IMG/VR virus record: IMGVR_UViG_3300044719_000253
Location: 1-64,000 of that record
Source of the DNA: a virus
Lineage: Duplodnaviria; Caudoviricetes
Length of the DNA: 64,000 bases
Direction: 5' to 3' (one strand)
Position numbers and translations under genes: made by a program. Positions 5,027 through 52,915 of the stretch are shown here, one piece after another (the stretch's first letter is position 1; each line of letters begins with the position of its first letter). Under the pieces are notes generated by a model that saw only the letters and a program-made list of their open reading frames with translations, searched no databases and had not been told where the DNA came from.

Positions 5027-5443
5027 CTATGGTTGAAATGGGTTGCGGTGAATGCGACGCACAGTGGTCTTGCCACGCACCATGAATTCGTAAATCGCCT
5101 GGGCGGCCCGATAGTGTTCGTCATGATACAATTCAATAACGGGCGCGTTTTCCAATGGTATCTGACCGCGTTTTTCATCGTACTGGGTGTTAGATTCCGT
5201 GCCTAACACGACATCGATTCCGTCGGTCACCGAGTTTTGCTTCACCCAAGCGTATCGGCGGAAAATATGGCCGTCCCTCACCCGGAAGCGATAAGCGGAA
5301 TCGCCACCCAGCGTGGCCGCTTCAGCGACAATCTCGATATTGCCGTGGGTGTCATCTGCTTCCTGATAACCTGGCGAGGAGAGCAGGATATTGAAAACAC
5401 ATTCACCCAGCAGAAGACCGTGGTCTTTATAGAAATTAAACAC
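5027..5443 (-). CDS. hypothetical protein
   Basis: ORF with AGGAG SD. Confidence 0.7.
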   Translation of the reverse strand: MFNFYKDHGLLLGECVFNILLSSPGYQEADDTHGNIEIVAEAATLGGDSAYRFRVRDGHIFRRYAWVKQNSVTDGIDVVLGTESNTQYDEKRGQIPLENAPVIELYHDEHYRAAQAIYEFMVRGKTTVRRIHRNPFQP

Positions 5444-5452
5444 AATAGCTCC

Positions 5453-6040
5453 TTATTGGTTATCCGGTTGCGGTGGCGGAAGTTCTTTGACTTCGCGGAG
5501 GTCTTGGTCGATGTCATTTTCATCGAGGATTGAACGAATGACATTGCGGAATGTGAATCTGGCTGGCCGGTTATGATCCCGTTCGCTAAGTGCATTTTCT
5601 GCGTCCAGCACATCCAGCCGGTTTTGATTAAAATCGTAGTTGACCTGAAACGATTCAGACTGACCGCGCCGAGACTTGCTGCGTTGTATTGTCAGACATT
5701 TGACACCGTCAACGGATTCCACACTGTGACTGGACGAGTAGCCGCCGATGACAAAATCAGTGGCGGGTGACTTAGCGGCTGCCTTGGGGGTAACGAAGAC
5801 GATGTCATTTCTCGGTTTAAAGCTTCTCAGGGCAGCCAGGATTTCGGGGATGGCGGGTTGATGGATGGGGATACGATCCAGATAACGATCCAGCACAGCG
5901 ATCGGGGTACGGAGCGTTGCTTTGATCTCTTGTTCCGACAAGTGTTTCCGGGTGATTTGTTCCTGATGAACCGGCACCGGGTACGGAGCATCGAACGGTT
6001 TGTACAGACATACTTCACGAATGGCGTCTTGCAGGTTCAT
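5453..6040 (-). CDS. hypothetical protein
   Basis: Start at ATG 6040 overlapping upstream stop. Confidence 0.65.
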   Translation of the reverse strand: MNLQDAIREVCLYKPFDAPYPVPVHQEQITRKHLSEQEIKATLRTPIAVLDRYLDRIPIHQPAIPEILAALRSFKPRNDIVFVTPKAAAKSPATDFVIGGYSSSHSVESVDGVKCLTIQRSKSRRGQSESFQVNYDFNQNRLDVLDAENALSERDHNRPARFTFRNVIRSILDENDIDQDLREVKELPPPQPDNQ

Positions 6041-6564
6041 AATGCTTTTCCTTCCGACATGGCGCGATCCATTTCCAGGATTCGTTGTTGAGCCTGATCT
6101 AACCGGGCTTTCTTGACTAAGCCGGTGAGGTGGCGATACTGCTCGATGTAACTGACCGGCCACGATACGTTAGTAAATGGCCCCAGCGCGTGGATGGTTT
6201 TGGCCACCGATTCTGCTCGGCTCAAGGATTGGTCTGTCGCGGTGTCAACTTCCACGACATCGCTACCGGGGTGTTGCACGATGTAAGTCCGCCGTTCAGT
6301 CAACAGTTCCATCAATTCCTCACGCGTGGCGCAGTACACCCCGAGGATCTTGGCCACTGCGCACAGAAACACCACCTCATTCAGGTTGTAATTCTTGTGC
6401 GTGTTGGCCGGATCGAACACCGTGGAAACACGTCCATGGTCGATATCCATCAGAAAGTTTTCTTTCACCACCGCCAACACTACGGCTTTGGCATCCTGCG
6501 GTTTGGTCGGGGTGTAATGAAAGTTAGGCAAACCACCGAAGGTGACTTTGATATTGGATTTCAT
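6037..6564 (-). CDS. hypothetical protein
   Basis: Start at ATG 6564 with AAGGA SD. Confidence 0.65.
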   Translation of the reverse strand: MKSNIKVTFGGLPNFHYTPTKPQDAKAVVLAVVKENFLMDIDHGRVSTVFDPANTHKNYNLNEVVFLCAVAKILGVYCATREELMELLTERRTYIVQHPGSDVVEVDTATDQSLSRAESVAKTIHALGPFTNVSWPVSYIEQYRHLTGLVKKARLDQAQQRILEMDRAMSEGKAL

Positions 6565-6887: not shown

Positions 6888-7229
6888 TCATGCAGCGCGC
6901 AACTGGTGTGGCGGATAGATGACTTCTTTACGTTGTCCGTGGTGGTTTTCCGGGGACTTCCATTTCTGGAGCAATCCGCGGATGATGAAATTGCTGCCCA
7001 CCAACATCGACATGATCTTTTTGGATGGATTGGGATCTTTGCGCAGTTCCGCCAAGAACTTCATCTTGGCCAAATGGTCGAGCGACATCTCCAGCGCCAC
7101 GATATCGTCCTGCGTCCACACGGGTGGATGTACTACCGCAGTAAACTGACGCGGCTCCACCAGCGTATGCTCGGTCGTTTTGCAGTCAACCCACACGAAC
7201 ATGGTCACTTCATAACCTGGCACGCACAT
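6888..7229 (-). CDS. hypothetical protein
   Basis: ORF between hairpin and upstream gene. Confidence 0.6.
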   Translation of the reverse strand: MCVPGYEVTMFVWVDCKTTEHTLVEPRQFTAVVHPPVWTQDDIVALEMSLDHLAKMKFLAELRKDPNPSKKIMSMLVGSNFIIRGLLQKWKSPENHHGQRKEVIYPPHQLRAA

Positions 7230-7994: not shown

Positions 7995-8158
7995 AAAATC
8001 CCCGACCACAAGTGTCGGCCGAGGGAACGCTGCTGTCACCCGACTGGAAGTCAAGGTAGGGCGGGTCGCGGGAAAGGAAGATTTACGAGAGTTACGGGCC
8101 ATGGTTGTTGTTAGTTGTGAAATGATTAAAGAGGGTGATCCTAGTTAGGCTCAATGGA

Positions 8159-8177
8159 GTGATATAGTCACAAAATT
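8159..8177 (-). promoter_or_regulatory. putative early promoter (TTTT-N-CTATATCAC)
   Basis: gtgatatag on + strand in intergenic DNA directly downstream (in transcription sense) of a terminator-like hairpin; motif recurs at least 6 times. Confidence 0.6.
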
Positions 8178-9654: not shown

Positions 9655-9762
9655 TAACGCCCTCCTTTCTCAAGGGATAGGATGTACAGATAAAAGGATA
9701 CCGTAAAGTTTCCTGTGAAGAATGTCATTTTGATATCATTGACTTTACGGGGGTTCCTTTTA

Positions 9763-9782
9763 GTGATATAGAACCAAAAAAA
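9763..9782 (-). promoter_or_regulatory. putative early promoter (CTATATCAC)
   Basis: gtgatatag followed by an A-run on + strand. Confidence 0.6.
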
Positions 9783-16262: not shown

Positions 16263-16337
16263 TGGTGCCGATAGAGTGAATCAAACACTCGACCTTACGC
16301 TTACAAGGCGTCTGCTCTGTCACTGAGCTATATCGGC
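16263..16337 (-). tRNA. trnT: tRNA-Thr(UGU)
   Basis: 7-bp acceptor GCCGATA/TATCGGC, anticodon loop CT-TGT-AA, encoded CCA; T loop reads TTTGATT. Confidence 0.9.
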
Positions 16338-17630: not shown

Positions 17631-17712
17631 GGTACATTCTCCTTGTAGCTAGTAAGTGGTATCTCTACCGTGATGATTTTACTCTGTTCATCAAACAGTC
17701 CTACGAAAAACT

Positions 17713-17831
17713 TGATGGAAAATGGAGAGATTCGAACTCTCGGTAGGTAGCTAGGATCACCCTTTGCCACTAGCCCCCACATCTATCATCCCACGATGAT
17801 CGATCGCCTTCAGCCACTCAGCCACACTTCC
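17713..17831 (-). ncRNA. tRNA-Ser-like RNA with aberrant anticodon arm and very long variable arm
   Basis: D arm GCTGAGTGGCTGAAGGC, T arm GAGAG-TTCGAAT-CTCTC, anticodon arm replaced by a 9-bp stem with 4-nt loop; no CCA. Confidence 0.65.
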
Positions 17832-17834
17832 GAC

Positions 17835-17975
17835 TCCCCGAATAGGAGTTCCGTTAATCCGAACGCATCGGATCACCTCATATCCCATCGACCTCGAAAG
17901 TCGACACGGCACGAGAGGATGCCATGAAGATCCACTAACGTGGTGAAGTCATGGAACGGGTTTGTGCTCTTTACT
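17835..17975 (-). ncRNA. unclassified multi-hairpin RNA between tRNA-like genes
   Basis: Stems CATGGCA/TGCCGTG, TCGAC/GTCGA, ATCCGA/TCGGAT, CCAC/GTGG, ACTCC/GGAGT. Confidence 0.4.
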
Positions 17976-17988
17976 ACAACAATGCGGT

Positions 17989-18145
17989 AGGTCGAGAGAG
18001 GGAATCGAACCCCCGTTCTACTACAACAGTTTATCTGGATACCCGCCCCGACCATTGGCCCGGTAGATACCCTACTGTTGGTTCAAATACTGATCACTTA
18101 ACCCAGGGAGCAATCAGCTGCGTCTTCCACTTCGCCATCTCGACC
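17989..18145 (-). ncRNA. expanded tRNA-like RNA (8-bp acceptor, 18-nt anticodon loop, ~75-nt variable region)
   Basis: GGTCGAGA/TCTCGACC acceptor, GCG-AAGTGGAAGA-CGC D arm, GGGGG-TTCGATT-CCCTC T arm. Confidence 0.7.
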
Positions 18146-18154
18146 ATTGAAACT

Positions 18155-18229
18155 TGGGCTTGGAGGGGAGATTCGAACTCCCGACCTCTGTCTTGGTTAT
18201 ATGCGCTCTAACCGACTGAGCTACCAGCG
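18155..18229 (-). pseudogene. degenerate tRNA-like element (D and T arms intact)
   Basis: TAGCTCAGTCGGTTAGAGC and GGGAG-TTCGAAT-CTCCC; anticodon and acceptor stems do not pair. Confidence 0.6.
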
Positions 18230-18240
18230 AGTATCTTCAT

Positions 18241-18307
18241 ACTCCCCAGGCTGGACTCGAACCAGGGACCTCAAACGACAGTGCTCTACCGCTGAGCTAC
18301 TCCGCGC
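18241..18307 (-). pseudogene. degenerate tRNA-like element (D and T arms intact, anticodon arm truncated)
   Basis: TAGCTCAGCGGTAGAGC and CTGG-TTCGAGT-CCAG; only about 10 nt where the anticodon arm should be. Confidence 0.6.
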
Positions 18308-18314
18308 ATTGACC

Positions 18315-18610: not shown

Positions 18611-19111
18611 TTAGTCCTGACCGAGCTCAGCCTTCAGTTCTTTGGTGAACTGCGCGGAGGTGCCCGGTGCATGTTTAGGGGCATCGACCACGATGCCTTG
18701 GTTGGGGAGAACTTGGAACGCGCGATCGTCATAGAGTTCACGCATTGCCATGTCTTTGATGTTGGTGACTTCGAAGACTTGCCCGATGTGTTCTTGGCAC
18801 CAGGCTTCGATTGCTTGCCGTACCGCGGCGTTGATGCGATCGTCCGCATACGAAACCCGCGCGGTGAAGATCTTAACCCGCATCTCTTTGGCTTTCGCTT
18901 GGATGCGTTCGATCATGGCGGGGATCGGAGCCCCGATGTGCAAACAACCTTTCCATTCCTCGTGGATAGCGAGGGTTTTGTCAAGATCGAATCCACACCA
19001 CGGTTCCAGATATGGTTGTTGCTTGGCCAGCGCTTCGATGTAAGCCGGCGAATCGTTTTCTGCGCCTTCAGGCGTCTCCGACTCAGTGGCCAGATGTCGT
19101 TGCAGTTTCAT
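18611..19111 (-). CDS. HAD-family phosphatase (polynucleotide kinase 3'-phosphatase-like)
   Basis: Motif I FDLDKTLA, motif II IFTAR, C-terminal LYDDRA. Confidence 0.75.
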   Translation of the reverse strand: MKLQRHLATESETPEGAENDSPAYIEALAKQQPYLEPWCGFDLDKTLAIHEEWKGCLHIGAPIPAMIERIQAKAKEMRVKIFTARVSYADDRINAAVRQAIEAWCQEHIGQVFEVTNIKDMAMRELYDDRAFQVLPNQGIVVDAPKHAPGTSAQFTKELKAELGQD

Positions 19112-19144
19112 GGTATCTCTTTCAGTGGATATACATGCCAAGAC

Positions 19145-19658
19145 ACACTCAGGCGTCCCTAAATGTGACTCAGGCTATACACCAACGTGTACGACTTGCT
19201 CCACCATCATGGTCGACTCCCGTCGCGAAAAGATGGAACCCATAAGTGCTTTTGGGAATGAAGTCTCTTTAGAGGTCACTAAGGAGATCGATAGACCGGA
19301 GCCCATCCCACAGGCCACCTTAACGAAGCGTCGTCAAAGTACCTGTAGGCTATGCTCAGGCGTTCGTGGGAGTTTCTCCACAACACGTTTCTCACGTGAC
19401 ACGAACATGAAGATGCTGACTGGGAATTGGTCAGTCGCATCGCGGGCATTAACACGAGTCCTTACGCACGCTGACGCCTGCCAGCGAACGCCGAAAGCGG
19501 CACCATAGGCCGCCTGTTGGCGATACAGCCCCGGAAGCCTCCGAGGTTCTCGTATTAGCCCGACCACTTGCCCTCCCAAGTGGCGATGTTGGCCTGTGTG
19601 TTTTACGTGCGGACGTTGACACCCGCTCTTTTCAACACGTTTACTCCCCGGATCGGGG
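19145..19658 (-). ncRNA. candidate ~500-nt large ornate ncRNA
   Basis: No credible ORF; dense stems (19564-19583, 19529-19546, 19412-19441, 19384-19398, 19366-19381, 19177-19192); CCTGAG repeated three times. Confidence 0.55.
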
Positions 19659-19659
19659 G

Positions 19660-19725
19660 AGGCATAACTTGCTGTAGCTTTTTCACCGGACCCCTGATAG
19701 GGCGTTCTCCTCGGTGGGCTACAGC
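19660..19725 (-). terminator. branched hairpin plus TTATGCCT
   Basis: GCTGTAGC/GCTACAGC 8-bp stem followed by AAGTTATGCCT, just after the 19751 stop. Confidence 0.5.
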
Positions 19726-19750
19726 CAGGATACCGATTGCTCGGTATATG

Positions 19751-20113
19751 TTAGTCTGGGGCTTGGACGAATGTCACGTAATACTTGGCCCCGACTTTGA
19801 GTTGCTCGTTGACGTGTGGGTTCAGAATCGAACCTTTGAACTCCGCATAGGGCGTCCAATGGCCGAAGATGGCGTTTTCGGAAGCTTGTTGCTTTTCCGT
19901 CGAGCCTTCCCACACTGCACCGAAGTGAACCGTCTGACCCGGCAGTTCTTGGTTGGTAGCGCTGAAACCTTTCATTGGGTTCGCGCTGTGCAGTTGTAGC
20001 TTGCACACCATTACGGCACCTGGCACACCCGCATCGGCGAATTCGTCGACACCGGCTGCGTCCATTTCAGCCAGCTGGGCCAGCAACCACTTACGCGTGA
20101 TATTCAACTTCAT
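19751..20113 (-). CDS. conserved phage protein (AV...SEN..F...TP...I.NP...G..YY family)
   Basis: Recognisable motif; AGGAG SD. Confidence 0.7.
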   Translation of the reverse strand: MKLNITRKWLLAQLAEMDAAGVDEFADAGVPGAVMVCKLQLHSANPMKGFSATNQELPGQTVHFGAVWEGSTEKQQASENAIFGHWTPYAEFKGSILNPHVNEQLKVGAKYYVTFVQAPD

Positions 20114-21012: not shown

Positions 21013-21549
21013 TTACCAACTCAGCCAGCTGAAGGAGTTGCTTTCCTTGTTGATCACTTTCAGTTGCACTTGGATCGGTGGCAGTAAAATCACTTCGTGC
21101 TGGGTCTTGATGTCTTTCAAATTACTCAGTTCGTGCACGATGACATTCAATTCATCGGTGATCACCAAACATGGCGTACGCTGCGGCTGAATCACGGTAG
21201 ATACCACCACATTGCCAAACGCATGGGCGATCGATTCTTCGGTACTGAACGACAGCGATCGATCCTCACTCTGGTAAGGGACGATTTGCCCGATATGGGC
21301 ATCTTCGCTGATTCCTAGGCTGTCTTGAAACGACCCCAGTCGAAAACCGCGGTACAGCTTCAGTTCAGTCGGGAGATCGTACATGTCGCGCACGAGTTGA
21401 CCCAATGCCGCCATCTGTGGAATCAAACGCCGGTCGGCAAACTTCACCCACTCCTTTAAGGCATCCATGAGTTGCGGATGTTGTTTGAAACGACGGATTT
21501 TCTCTTCCGAGATATTGTCCAAAGAAAGCGGAACAGCGGCATCGGTCAT
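21013..21549 (-). CDS. putative ADP-ribosyltransferase (R-S-E class)
   Basis: LYRG ... SLSFST ... QHEVILL in the canonical order. Confidence 0.6.
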   Translation of the reverse strand: MTDAAVPLSLDNISEEKIRRFKQHPQLMDALKEWVKFADRRLIPQMAALGQLVRDMYDLPTELKLYRGFRLGSFQDSLGISEDAHIGQIVPYQSEDRSLSFSTEESIAHAFGNVVVSTVIQPQRTPCLVITDELNVIVHELSNLKDIKTQHEVILLPPIQVQLKVINKESNSFSWLSW

Positions 21550-21609
21550 GGCGGGCCTCGATTGAAAGTTAAGGCCGCACAAAACGGCCACTATACAATC
21601 TACTTTCGA

Positions 21610-25780: not shown

Positions 25781-25823
25781 GGCGATATCCTTTTGTTGGT
25801 TATTTAGGTAACAGCTCAGGGTA

Positions 25824-25832
25824 GTGATATAG
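25824..25832 (-). promoter_or_regulatory. putative early promoter (CTATATCAC)
   Basis: Motif between terminator hairpin (25851-25890) and AAA gene. Confidence 0.55.
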
Positions 25833-34346: not shown

Positions 34347-34479
34347 GGCGAACCTATGTTGTTGGTTATAAAGGGCATTTACAAATCATGGGTAAGGCTG
34401 GTGATTTTTTCTTGAAACGACATACATCCCCTATCCCCGGAGGGATAGGGGTGTGATGACCGCCGAAGGGTTCACTACA

Positions 34480-34488
34480 GTGATATGG
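34480..34488 (-). promoter_or_regulatory. putative early promoter variant (CCATATCAC)
   Basis: One mismatch to the recurring motif; intergenic. Confidence 0.4.
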
Positions 34489-43826: not shown

Positions 43827-43929
43827 CTTTCCTAGGTGCTAGTGGGCGGCGCGGTTCCCATTGGTTCAGAGCATGTTACGCATCAATAAAAAATTCCTGA
43901 TAAGCAACATCGAATTTCTGCTCACCTGA

Positions 43930-43948
43930 GTGATATAGACGCAAAAAA
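43930..43948 (-). promoter_or_regulatory. putative early promoter (TTTTTT-N4-CTATATCAC) for the NAD operon
   Basis: Exact motif upstream of nadM-nadV. Confidence 0.6.
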
Positions 43949-51682: not shown

Positions 51683-51755
51683 GGTTGTTGTTGGTTATCG
51701 AAGTGTTATAGGGTCTATAGAGGATACGTTGCTGGTAAATTTCTTACCGGTAAGA

Positions 51756-52852: not shown

Positions 52853-52896
52853 GATTGTCCTTTGTATTGTTGGTTATCCTGGTAATCCTCGCTGTA

Positions 52897-52915
52897 GTGA
52901 TATAGGCGTTAAAAT
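52897..52915 (-). promoter_or_regulatory. putative early promoter (ATTTT-N5-CTATATCAC)
   Basis: Exact motif at the boundary after the tail gene terminator. Confidence 0.6.

Follow-up and report, generated by a model that had tools for sequence, protein, structure and literature searches.

A large non-coding RNA with repeated modules in a clade of chimallin-encoding jumbo phages

The window analysed here comprises 64,000 nucleotides, the first 64 kb of the 226-kb IMG/VR virus record IMGVR_UViG_3300044719_000253. On its minus strand, positions 19745-19123, immediately upstream of a HAD-type phosphatase gene, we find an RNA which we read, with a probability of roughly 0.6, as a large non-coding RNA with tertiary structure that belongs to a family outside Rfam and acts as a free molecule rather than as the leader of the phosphatase gene. 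Judged from sequence comparison, the class is apparently undescribed, is real, has good comparative support and follows an unusual repeated-module plan.

Results

Locus and flanking genes

Almost all genes of the window lie on the minus strand. They include an AAA ATPase gene and a gene for a chimallin-type nuclear shell protein (PHROG 4795, E 4e-22; weak match to Pfam Chimallin_Phikzvirus), on account of which the source is considered a divergent nucleus-forming jumbo phage. The RNA is present as a single copy in its genome at a fixed syntenic place, and the coordinates of its elements and of the flanking genes are collected in Table 1. The small upstream protein matches phrog_6978 and many phage homologues with its C-terminal 87 residues and aligns through to the end of phrog_6978 and of these homologues.

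In the initial annotation, the RNA candidate was confined to 19145-19658, described as the largest ORF-free gap of the region. The gap itself is real, but the RNA is wider, and by crude gene calls another gene-free gap of the window, at 17631-18314, is slightly larger.

Table 1. Elements of the RNA and flanking genes, listed in the 5' to 3' direction of the minus strand
Feature	Position	Strand	Remarks
Upstream small gene	19751-20113	minus	stop codon borders the 5' side of the RNA
Non-coding RNA, whole	19745-19123	minus	~620 nt, between two minus-strand genes
5' hairpin ACCGA-GCAA-UCGGU, GNRA tetraloop	19732..19745	minus	directly 3' of the upstream stop codon
H0, branched hairpin X of module A	19671..19726	minus	ends just 5' of the CAA linker
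CAA linker and H1* 5' strand GUUAUGC	19662..19671	minus	pairs with 19349-19355
H2, hairpin CUCCCC/GGGGAG	19641..19661	minus	UCCUUA/UGGGGA in most relatives
H3, hairpin with variable interior	19597..19639	minus	92% paired
H4 5' strand CAGGC and H5 hairpin	19565..19596	minus	H4 partner GCCUG at 19357-19361
Mid domain H6-H10, four-way junction	19443..19562	minus	junction letters GAGAACC and GUAAG invariant
H11, hairpin with conserved loop CCAAUUC	19412..19441	minus	6/10 pairs compensatory
H12 GUUCGUG/CACGAAC, variable insert, then H4 3' strand GCCUG	19357..19406	minus	
H1* 3' strand GCAUAGC	19349..19355	minus	closes the ~310-nt inserted domain
H13, hairpin Z of module A (CUACAGG.../...CCUGUGG), and tail GAUGGG	19296..19348	minus	
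Inter-module linker, variable	19260..19295	minus	poorly conserved; tRNA-like element in L030
H14, hairpin X of module B	19198..19259	minus	encloses GNRA hairpin CGAC-GGGA-GUCG (19214-19225)
AA linker and H15, hairpin Y of module B (GUCGUACAC-GUUG-GUGUAUAGC)	19174..19197	minus	
H16, hairpin Z of module B, stacked on H15	19138..19173	minus	basal C-G, U-G and G-U conserved
Module B 3' tail CAUGUAUAUCCACUG	19123..19137	minus	ends just 5' of the HAD ribosome-binding site
HAD-type (DxDxT) phosphatase gene	18611-19111	minus	166 aa, ATG at 19111; neighbour, outside the RNA

Non-coding status

No credible ORF was found in the gap between the flanking genes, where the ORFs are short (47-81 aa) and mutually overlapping. 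A codon-usage model trained on the long ORFs of the same genome scored positive in the correct frame of both flanking genes and negative across 19113-19750 in all six frames. Substitutions in the RNA region relative to five homologues revealed no 3-base periodicity (e.g. 76/68/66), those in the HAD gene being distributed as 87/34/31 over the third, first and second codon positions, and 14-18 of the 19-24 indels separating the RNA region from the five homologues were not a multiple of three. The marks of protein coding, i.e. an open frame, codon periodicity and in-frame indels, were therefore all found to be missing. Translated small ORFs, which had been named in the initial annotation as one finding that would overturn the RNA candidate, left no signal in codon usage, periodicity or indels.

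A decayed gene, or a region with small ORFs that code for protein, is an extremely unlikely explanation. An 81-aa TTG ORF at 19334-19579 and three shorter ORFs do lie on the minus strand, and the flanking genes share one reading frame; however, this frame, when read through the gap, is broken by three stops and yields an R/G/S/P-rich translation that is not protein-like. The negative coding scores, the absence of codon periodicity and the mostly frame-breaking indels speak against it equally, and coding would leave the compensatory base-pair changes described below unexplained.

Folding and covariation

The minus strand folds with a minimum free energy of -267 kcal/mol, corresponding to z = -7.07 against shuffled sequences, versus z = -2.89 for the plus strand; the early impression of a region packed with stems was thus right for the minus strand. 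Two homologues fold at z = -4.3 and -4.1. RNAalifold predicted 144 pairs from seven sequences, 57 of them with compensatory changes. The revised structure has 17 helices with 130 pairs, counted on a 7-row alignment of six distinct sequences. In this structure, 93.3% of the cells are paired, compared with 38-45% when the 3' partners were slid by 1-3 columns as a control, and compensatory (double) changes occur in 57/130 pairs versus 9-16 when slid.

The 3' domain, for which the alignment of all 11 lineages is unambiguous, gave 95.2% pairing cells (slid control 33-41%) and compensatory changes in 14/23 pairs. These values were reached by none of 500 shuffles, a test that is inflated by the relatedness of the sequences in what is a small family. 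In H15 and H16, three G-U pairs show no or almost no variation and would become A-C on the opposite strand, which fixes the minus strand as that of the RNA. Helices with compensatory changes across homologues, together with strand specificity, are what generally distinguishes a structured non-coding RNA, and both were found here. The proposal of an ornate non-coding RNA is accordingly borne out by a region that is non-coding, is conserved in about 11 lineages and carries compensatory changes in its helices; the homologue collection that had been suggested as a check supplied these lineages and changes.

The motif CCTGAG, to which the initial annotation had drawn attention, does occur three times on the minus strand (19148, 19169 and 19355), but the repeat count is at chance level. 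The exact 9-mer ACGCCTGAG occurs twice, with ~0.8 repeated 9-mers expected per 640 nt; with one mismatch allowed, 12 matches were counted in the window versus 12.7 expected. Two of the three CCTGAG copies lie within conserved elements, namely the 3' strand of H4 and the Y/Z junction of module B (AUAGCCUGAG).

Structural elements

The GNRA hairpin at the 5' end is also present in L024, L028 and the distant L030, with GCAA, GCGA or GAAA loops. A hairpin at the place of H0 precedes the conserved (G)CAAGUU in 11/11 lineages. The long-range helix H1* is formed across lineages by the 5' block GUU(A/G)UGC and GCA(U/C)AGC ~310 nt downstream. It has 7/7 pairs in nine sequences (eight on alignment A2, and L034 in the reading of A1); the remaining two retain 6/7 and 5/7. 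The helix covaries, with AU, GU and GC at one position and a change from GC to AU at another in L031. H2 shows compensatory changes in 4/6 and 2/4 pairs in alignment A1, and its pairing is kept by double changes in the distant L028, L033 and L036. H5 is 100% paired, with three compensatory pairs. Its loop may form a kissing contact with that of H11 (GGA/UCC or AGA/UCU), tentatively proposed from the complementarity of three pairs only.

A covariance model of the mid domain (R1) recovered L030 with 38 bits (E 9e-7) and many compensated pairs, and weakly matched L036 at the expected place (E 0.2). With filters off, R1 gave no credible match in L031, L033, L042 and L038; judged by sequence, these four either have something else in place of the central domain or have diverged too far within it. 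The insert of H12 measures 30 nt in the window versus ~100 nt in L024, L028 and L029.

Further downstream, 8/17 pairs of H13 are compensatory, and this hairpin is homologous to H16 with its tail. The GNRA hairpin in H14, of the type CGAU-GGGA-AUCG, was found in 11/11 lineages with the loop GGGA or GUGA, and one U-A pair of its stem is replaced by C-G in 4/11. Over the 11 lineages, the eight pairs of H15 are 97.7% paired, three being compensatory and AGU, UGGU and GCC being invariant, and the ten pairs of H16 are 99.1% paired, eight being compensatory. Tandem U-G/G-U pairs are conserved at the base of each Z hairpin. Together with the GNRA hairpins and the invariant junction letters, these tandem pairs point to a defined three-dimensional fold, as far as can be read from the sequences.

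Several candidate interactions were discarded. A closing helix GUGC/GUAC between the 5' block and the 3' tail, proposed by RNAalifold, pairs well in close relatives but reaches only 1-3 of 4 pairs in the distant lineages, and because of this failure it was replaced by H1*. A pairing of 5' CUCC with 3' GGAG was dropped since CUCC is already used by the well-covarying H2, and a contact between the loops of H11 and the GNRA hairpin was unsupported in L025 and L034. A likeness to the sarcin-ricin loop (UAAUACGAGAACC) sits in H7, an ordinary covarying Watson-Crick helix, and likenesses to 16S (AAGUCGUAAC) and to the 5' end of 23S were accompanied by no match to an rRNA model.

Modular plan

The RNA is built from a repeated unit in which a hairpin X, a CAA linker and a helix Y are followed by a hairpin Z stacked directly on Y and by a tail of the type GAGUG or GAUUG. 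The window holds two such units, module A followed by the compact module B (H14-H16). In module A, the order is H0, CAA, H1*, H13 stacked directly on H1* and the tail GAUG/GAGUG, and a ~310-nt domain with eleven helices (H2-H12), closed by GUUAUGC/GCAUAGC, takes the place of the Y loop. Module B runs from H14, with one or two GNRA hairpins, through CAA, H15 and the stacked H16 to the tail CAUG/GAGUG/GAUUG.

Within single genomes, the 3' halves of modules A and B are plainly alike, and in L034 the same 16-mer tail (CUUUGGAGUGUGUACC) stands in both. A covariance model built on module B only also recognised module A of L034 with 19 bits and an extra module in L042 with 29 bits; in L038 it found, with 25 bits, a module lying 1.6 kb upstream of the phosphatase gene. 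L038, the only relative without a gap adjoining the phosphatase gene, has a ~330-nt RNA with a single module, in which the 5' block, the long-range helix and the tail are retained. Among the relatives, the number of modules per RNA ranges from one to three and the length of the RNA from 0.33 to 0.85 kb. Nested tRNA-like elements were detected at variable sites in L042 at 698-769 (Rfam tRNA, 24 bits) and in L030 at about 5698-5857.

Homologues and distribution

Homologues of the RNA were reached via relatives of the HAD protein, which share 48-67% identity and are encoded on jumbo-phage contigs of up to 273 kb, several of which carry chimallin and PhiKZ-type capsid genes. Nearly every relative has a gap of 600-990 nt without genes immediately 5' of the HAD gene, and about 11 related metagenomic jumbo-phage lineages have kept the RNA. 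Five of these (L024, L028, L029, L025-27 and L034/35/40) are 52-67% identical over ~600 nt, which is similar to the DNA identity of the neighbouring protein gene. In the more distant L030, L031/32, L033, L036/37 and L042, only the collinear 5' and 3' blocks could be aligned. The tRNA-cluster context noted at the outset was confirmed, every relative carrying, behind the phosphatase gene, a tRNA array on the strand of the RNA, with the RNA at its head.

Outside these lineages, the searches were negative. No match to the RNA was obtained by distant blastn against the INPHARED phages, none by a second covariance model (R2) in 49 other whole phage records, and the RNA was absent from 75 other IMG/VR loci with the same phosphatase core. 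Homologues of the upstream protein at 21 IMG/VR loci proved to be widespread and not syntenic, none of them with the RNA, and a chimallin query gave no match in IMG/VR. A narrow pattern of the 3' block gave one viral and two metagenome matches, apparently contigs of the L024 and L034 lineages. A broad module pattern gave three viral matches and 90 matches in 185,579 species genomes, none of which was confirmed by R2 or nhmmer. The match in L158 (22 bits) was set aside, as it looks like a chance match pre-selected by the search pattern itself. Since the RNA is absent from the other loci, phage records and genomes scanned, the family is, on present sequences, small and limited to a single clade of nucleus-forming jumbo phages that encode chimallin.

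Comparison with known RNA families

At the gathering score, Rfam 15 gave no match inside the RNA in the window and 11 relatives, and none was obtained at E <= 10 with permissive filters for 18900-19950 and four further loci. Matches around the RNA were to tRNAs, tRNA-like and YrlA-like RNAs and noise. The negative results include GOLLD, ROOL, RNase P, group I and group II introns, small ribozymes and rRNAs. The GOLLD model (RF02032, gathering score 150 bits) did not match 18900-19950 at E <= 10, nor the inside of the RNA in L001, L028, L029 and L042 at the same cutoff; its sole row, of 17 bits, fell on the tRNA array of L028 on the opposite strand. The ROOL model (RF03087) was without a match at the gathering score in 12 loci and at E <= 10 in five sources. 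A literature search returned no description of this RNA.

GOLLD RNAs are often over 800 nt long, are encoded by phages or prophages and usually lie beside tRNA islands; their 3' region is well conserved, the 5' and central regions are more variable, and a linker occasionally harbours tRNAs (PMC12286853). The present RNA resembles them as a phage RNA at the head of a tRNA island in which the 3' module is best conserved and, in two lineages, tRNA-like elements are nested. Its sequence motifs are different, as is the arrangement of its helices with the repeated X-Y-Z module; it also differs in its length of ~620 nt, in its nucleus-forming jumbo-phage hosts and in the lack of a covariance-model match. 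ROOL RNAs, of about 580-660 nt, occur in phages and prophages near tRNA islands, have no known protein partner and are of unknown function (PMC12286853). Size, phage origin and proximity to a tRNA island are shared with ROOL; unlike ROOL, the present RNA has no covariance-model match, and the characteristic ROOL pseudoknots are not evident, with one tentative loop-loop contact.

Membership in GOLLD or ROOL is excluded because their covariance models fail to match, and from the sequences we interpret the RNA as representing a new class, GOLLD/ROOL-like in kind, among the large ornate RNAs of phages. The suspicion of a new class without a match to either family, voiced before any search, has thereby held against Rfam 15 even at E <= 10. 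The stable non-tRNA RNAs rnaC and rnaD of phage T4, of about 120-140 nt, are encoded within the phage tRNA cluster and co-oriented with it. Co-location and co-orientation with tRNA genes are the same here, while the present RNA is modular and exceeds them several-fold in length.

Group I and group II introns and RNase P likewise have GNRA tetraloops, long-range helices, invariant junction letters and a comparable size, so that a self-splicing intron, another ribozyme or a mobile-element remnant was considered. This is very unlikely, given that no intron, RNase P or small-ribozyme model matched even at E <= 10. No RNase P model matched inside the RNA, and its conserved blocks lack what we take to be the CR-I, CR-IV and CR-V sequences of RNase P. 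Furthermore, the flanking genes are complete and unrelated, the downstream protein having its own conserved N-terminus, which leaves no exons to join; homing endonuclease and reverse transcriptase are absent, and the RNA is a single-copy element with a fixed syntenic place.

The neighbouring phosphatase

The HAD protein bears the DxDxT, T/S, K and DD motifs of HAD phosphatases. It had no match among PDB sequences, and its fold was predicted with a mean pLDDT of 78. The nearest folds, all weak (Foldseek E 3e-3 to 3e-2, TM 0.35-0.5), were the capless HAD phosphatases BT_0820, the T4 Pnkp 3'-phosphatase domain, GmhB and a phage sugar-bisphosphate phosphatase. The N-terminal ~35 residues (M.L.RHLATES...) are conserved at the protein level via synonymous codon changes. 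This extension was matched almost only in the RNA-bearing clade, and nearly all of the 75 IMG/VR loci with the HAD core and without the RNA had no match to the first ~35 residues.

The strict co-occurrence of the RNA and the extended HAD form would fit an RNA that is a subunit or substrate of an RNA end-healing machine with the phosphatase, in which the N-terminal segment binds the RNA and the RNA recruits tRNAs or other RNAs for the removal of 3'-phosphates or cyclic phosphates. The T4 Pnkp 3'-phosphatase domain among the nearest predicted folds and RNA-ligase-like genes (faint RLIG1 matches) near the locus in L024 and L036 point in the same direction. Yet the fold matches are weak and include sugar-bisphosphate phosphatases equally, no solved structure is matched in sequence, and a conservation of the N-terminus at the protein level could serve any purpose. 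We regard this explanation as attractive but unlikely.

Transcription and mode of action

A phage promoter-like motif, composed of an AT-rich stretch and CTATATCACT, was found in 15 copies, all co-oriented with the genes. No copy lies between 25832 and 9771, and no terminator was found 3' of the RNA. It follows that the RNA is probably made within a long transcript, a minus-strand unit that would run into the HAD gene and the island of tRNA and tRNA-like genes. In the absence of a promoter and terminator of its own, a free RNA would need to be excised; no processing signal for its release was found.

Such an arrangement makes a giant cis-acting leader (5' UTR) of the HAD-phosphatase/tRNA operon a serious rival, to which we assign a minor but real share of the probability. 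As a leader, the attached RNA would control translation start, transcript stability, processing or read-through downstream. Besides the lack of a terminator before the HAD gene and of an own promoter of the CTATATCACT class, a leader would account for the 3' tail, which ends about 5-15 nt before the ribosome-binding site (Shine-Dalgarno) of the HAD gene in 10/12 lineages, and for the co-occurrence of the RNA with the clade-specific N-terminal extension of the HAD protein.

Against a leader, lengths of 0.33-0.85 kb, 17 helices and one to three modules far exceed known leaders, and we know of no bacterial or phage leader near this length and complexity. In two lineages the RNA is not directly followed by the HAD start: ~330 nt with a 66-aa ORF lie in between in L031, and tRNAs and a 191-aa gene in L038. 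The number of modules and the nested tRNA-like inserts vary, whereas the HAD start region is constant. Moreover, no conserved alternative pairing was found by which the HAD ribosome-binding site could be masked. We prefer the reading as a free RNA in view of its size, the changing number of modules, the tRNA-like elements nested in it and the two lineages in which it does not adjoin the HAD start.

As is suspected for GOLLD and ROOL, the free RNA may be a stable molecule with a function of its own that is linked to the tRNA biology of the phage. A possible role would be that of a scaffold or self-assembling particle, possibly together with the neighbouring phosphatase. In its most specific form, this would be a self-assembling modular particle or RNP in which the scaffold of tandem X-Y-Z modules carries tRNAs or tRNA-like RNAs, covalently nested in some lineages, and, with the co-inherited HAD phosphatase, processes, protects or delivers the tRNA set; we put this forward as speculative and rather improbable in its details.

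Significance

Few large RNAs with folds that are both elaborate and conserved are known, and the majority of these have proved to be ribozymes or remarkable assemblies. The function of GOLLD and ROOL is a standing question, to which the present family adds a third, unrelated example in the same niche, from host phages known only from metagenomes. It offers features that GOLLD and ROOL lack, namely a block repeated in one to three copies, a minimal version of ~330 nt in L038 and a co-inherited phosphatase gene. Even if it merely served as a leader, the RNA would surpass in size and elaboration every phage leader known to us. If the particle or RNP reading is true, it would be a third independent RNA machine of the GOLLD/ROOL type, and the candidate protein partner would make its function testable.

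Genes around the large RNA and putative regulatory motifs

The HAD phosphatase gene downstream of the large RNA (18611-19111, minus strand) was found to carry, in RNA-bearing phages, an N-terminal extension of about 35 residues, reading M.L.RHLATES, an acidic stretch and then IEALAK.QPY (alignment A5). Its conservation is maintained through synonymous codon changes, and the extension was unmatched in nearly all of 75 other IMG/VR homologues of the HAD core. A small gene upstream of the RNA is syntenic in several relatives, with 178-aa homologues in four of the metagenomic jumbo phages (L024, L025, L028 and L034), and its product weakly resembled phage RNA-polymerase ADP-ribosylases (phrog_832, E 9e-4; phrog_29772, E 7e-9).

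A sharp promoter-like motif was revealed in which a stop codon is followed by an AT-rich stretch and, after it, CTATATCACT; the distance to the gene start downstream is usually 14-130 nt. All 15 sites in the 226-kb genome have the same orientation as the genes, and the motif probably represents one class of promoters read by the RNA polymerase that the phage itself encodes. Leaders contain another enriched element, AACCAACAA, immediately 5' of start codons.

Features in the window and in relatives bearing the large RNA
Feature	Location	Strand	Remarks
Small gene	window 21013-21591	-	1.3 kb upstream of large RNA
CTATATCACT motif	window 52896-52905, 51702-51711, 43929-43938, 34479-34488, 25823-25832, 9762-9771, 8158-8167	-	promoter-like
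tRNA-like match, weak or interrupted	window 18165-18224	-	Rfam tRNA
tRNA-like matches, weak or interrupted	about 17717-17831, 17990-18144, 18224-18301	-	window positions, from the coordinates of locus L001
tRNA-like element	L030:5698-5857		linker joining two modules of large RNA; distant relative
Additional X-Y-Z module	L042:613-691		inside large RNA; R2 (module B covariance model), 29 bits
Degenerate tRNA-like element	L042:698-769		inside large RNA; Rfam tRNA 24 bits, E 0.38
Minimal large RNA, one module	L038:4099-4412		~330 nt

tRNA-like elements and module variants

Downstream of the HAD gene in the window, several weak or interrupted tRNA-like matches were detected, scoring 22-36 bits against the Rfam tRNA model; some of them contain long insertions. 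The sole ARAGORN call was a tRNA-Thr (16263-16337). In the tRNA island of L028, a YrlA (RF02553) match at 6112-6222 fell short of the gathering score (69), at 49.9 bits (E 8.5e-9), and weaker matches were located at 5104-5174 and 6970-7064. These YrlA-like matches suggest that the 'aberrant tRNAs' of these phages include tRNA-like Y-RNA relatives.

tRNA-like elements were also found within the large RNA itself. That of L030 combines an acceptor stem (GGUAAGG/CCUUACC), a standard D arm and a T arm with an insertion of ~110 nt, which includes AGUACGAGAGGA, with 12 nt of identity to the 23S sarcin-ricin loop consensus. In L042, the degenerate element directly follows the extra X-Y-Z module.

The minimal RNA of L038 keeps both the 5' block and the tail, as well as the long-range helix (here GUUGUGC/GCACAGC), with three tRNA genes downstream and the HAD gene 1.6 kb away. 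This single-module RNA would make a good construct for structural work.
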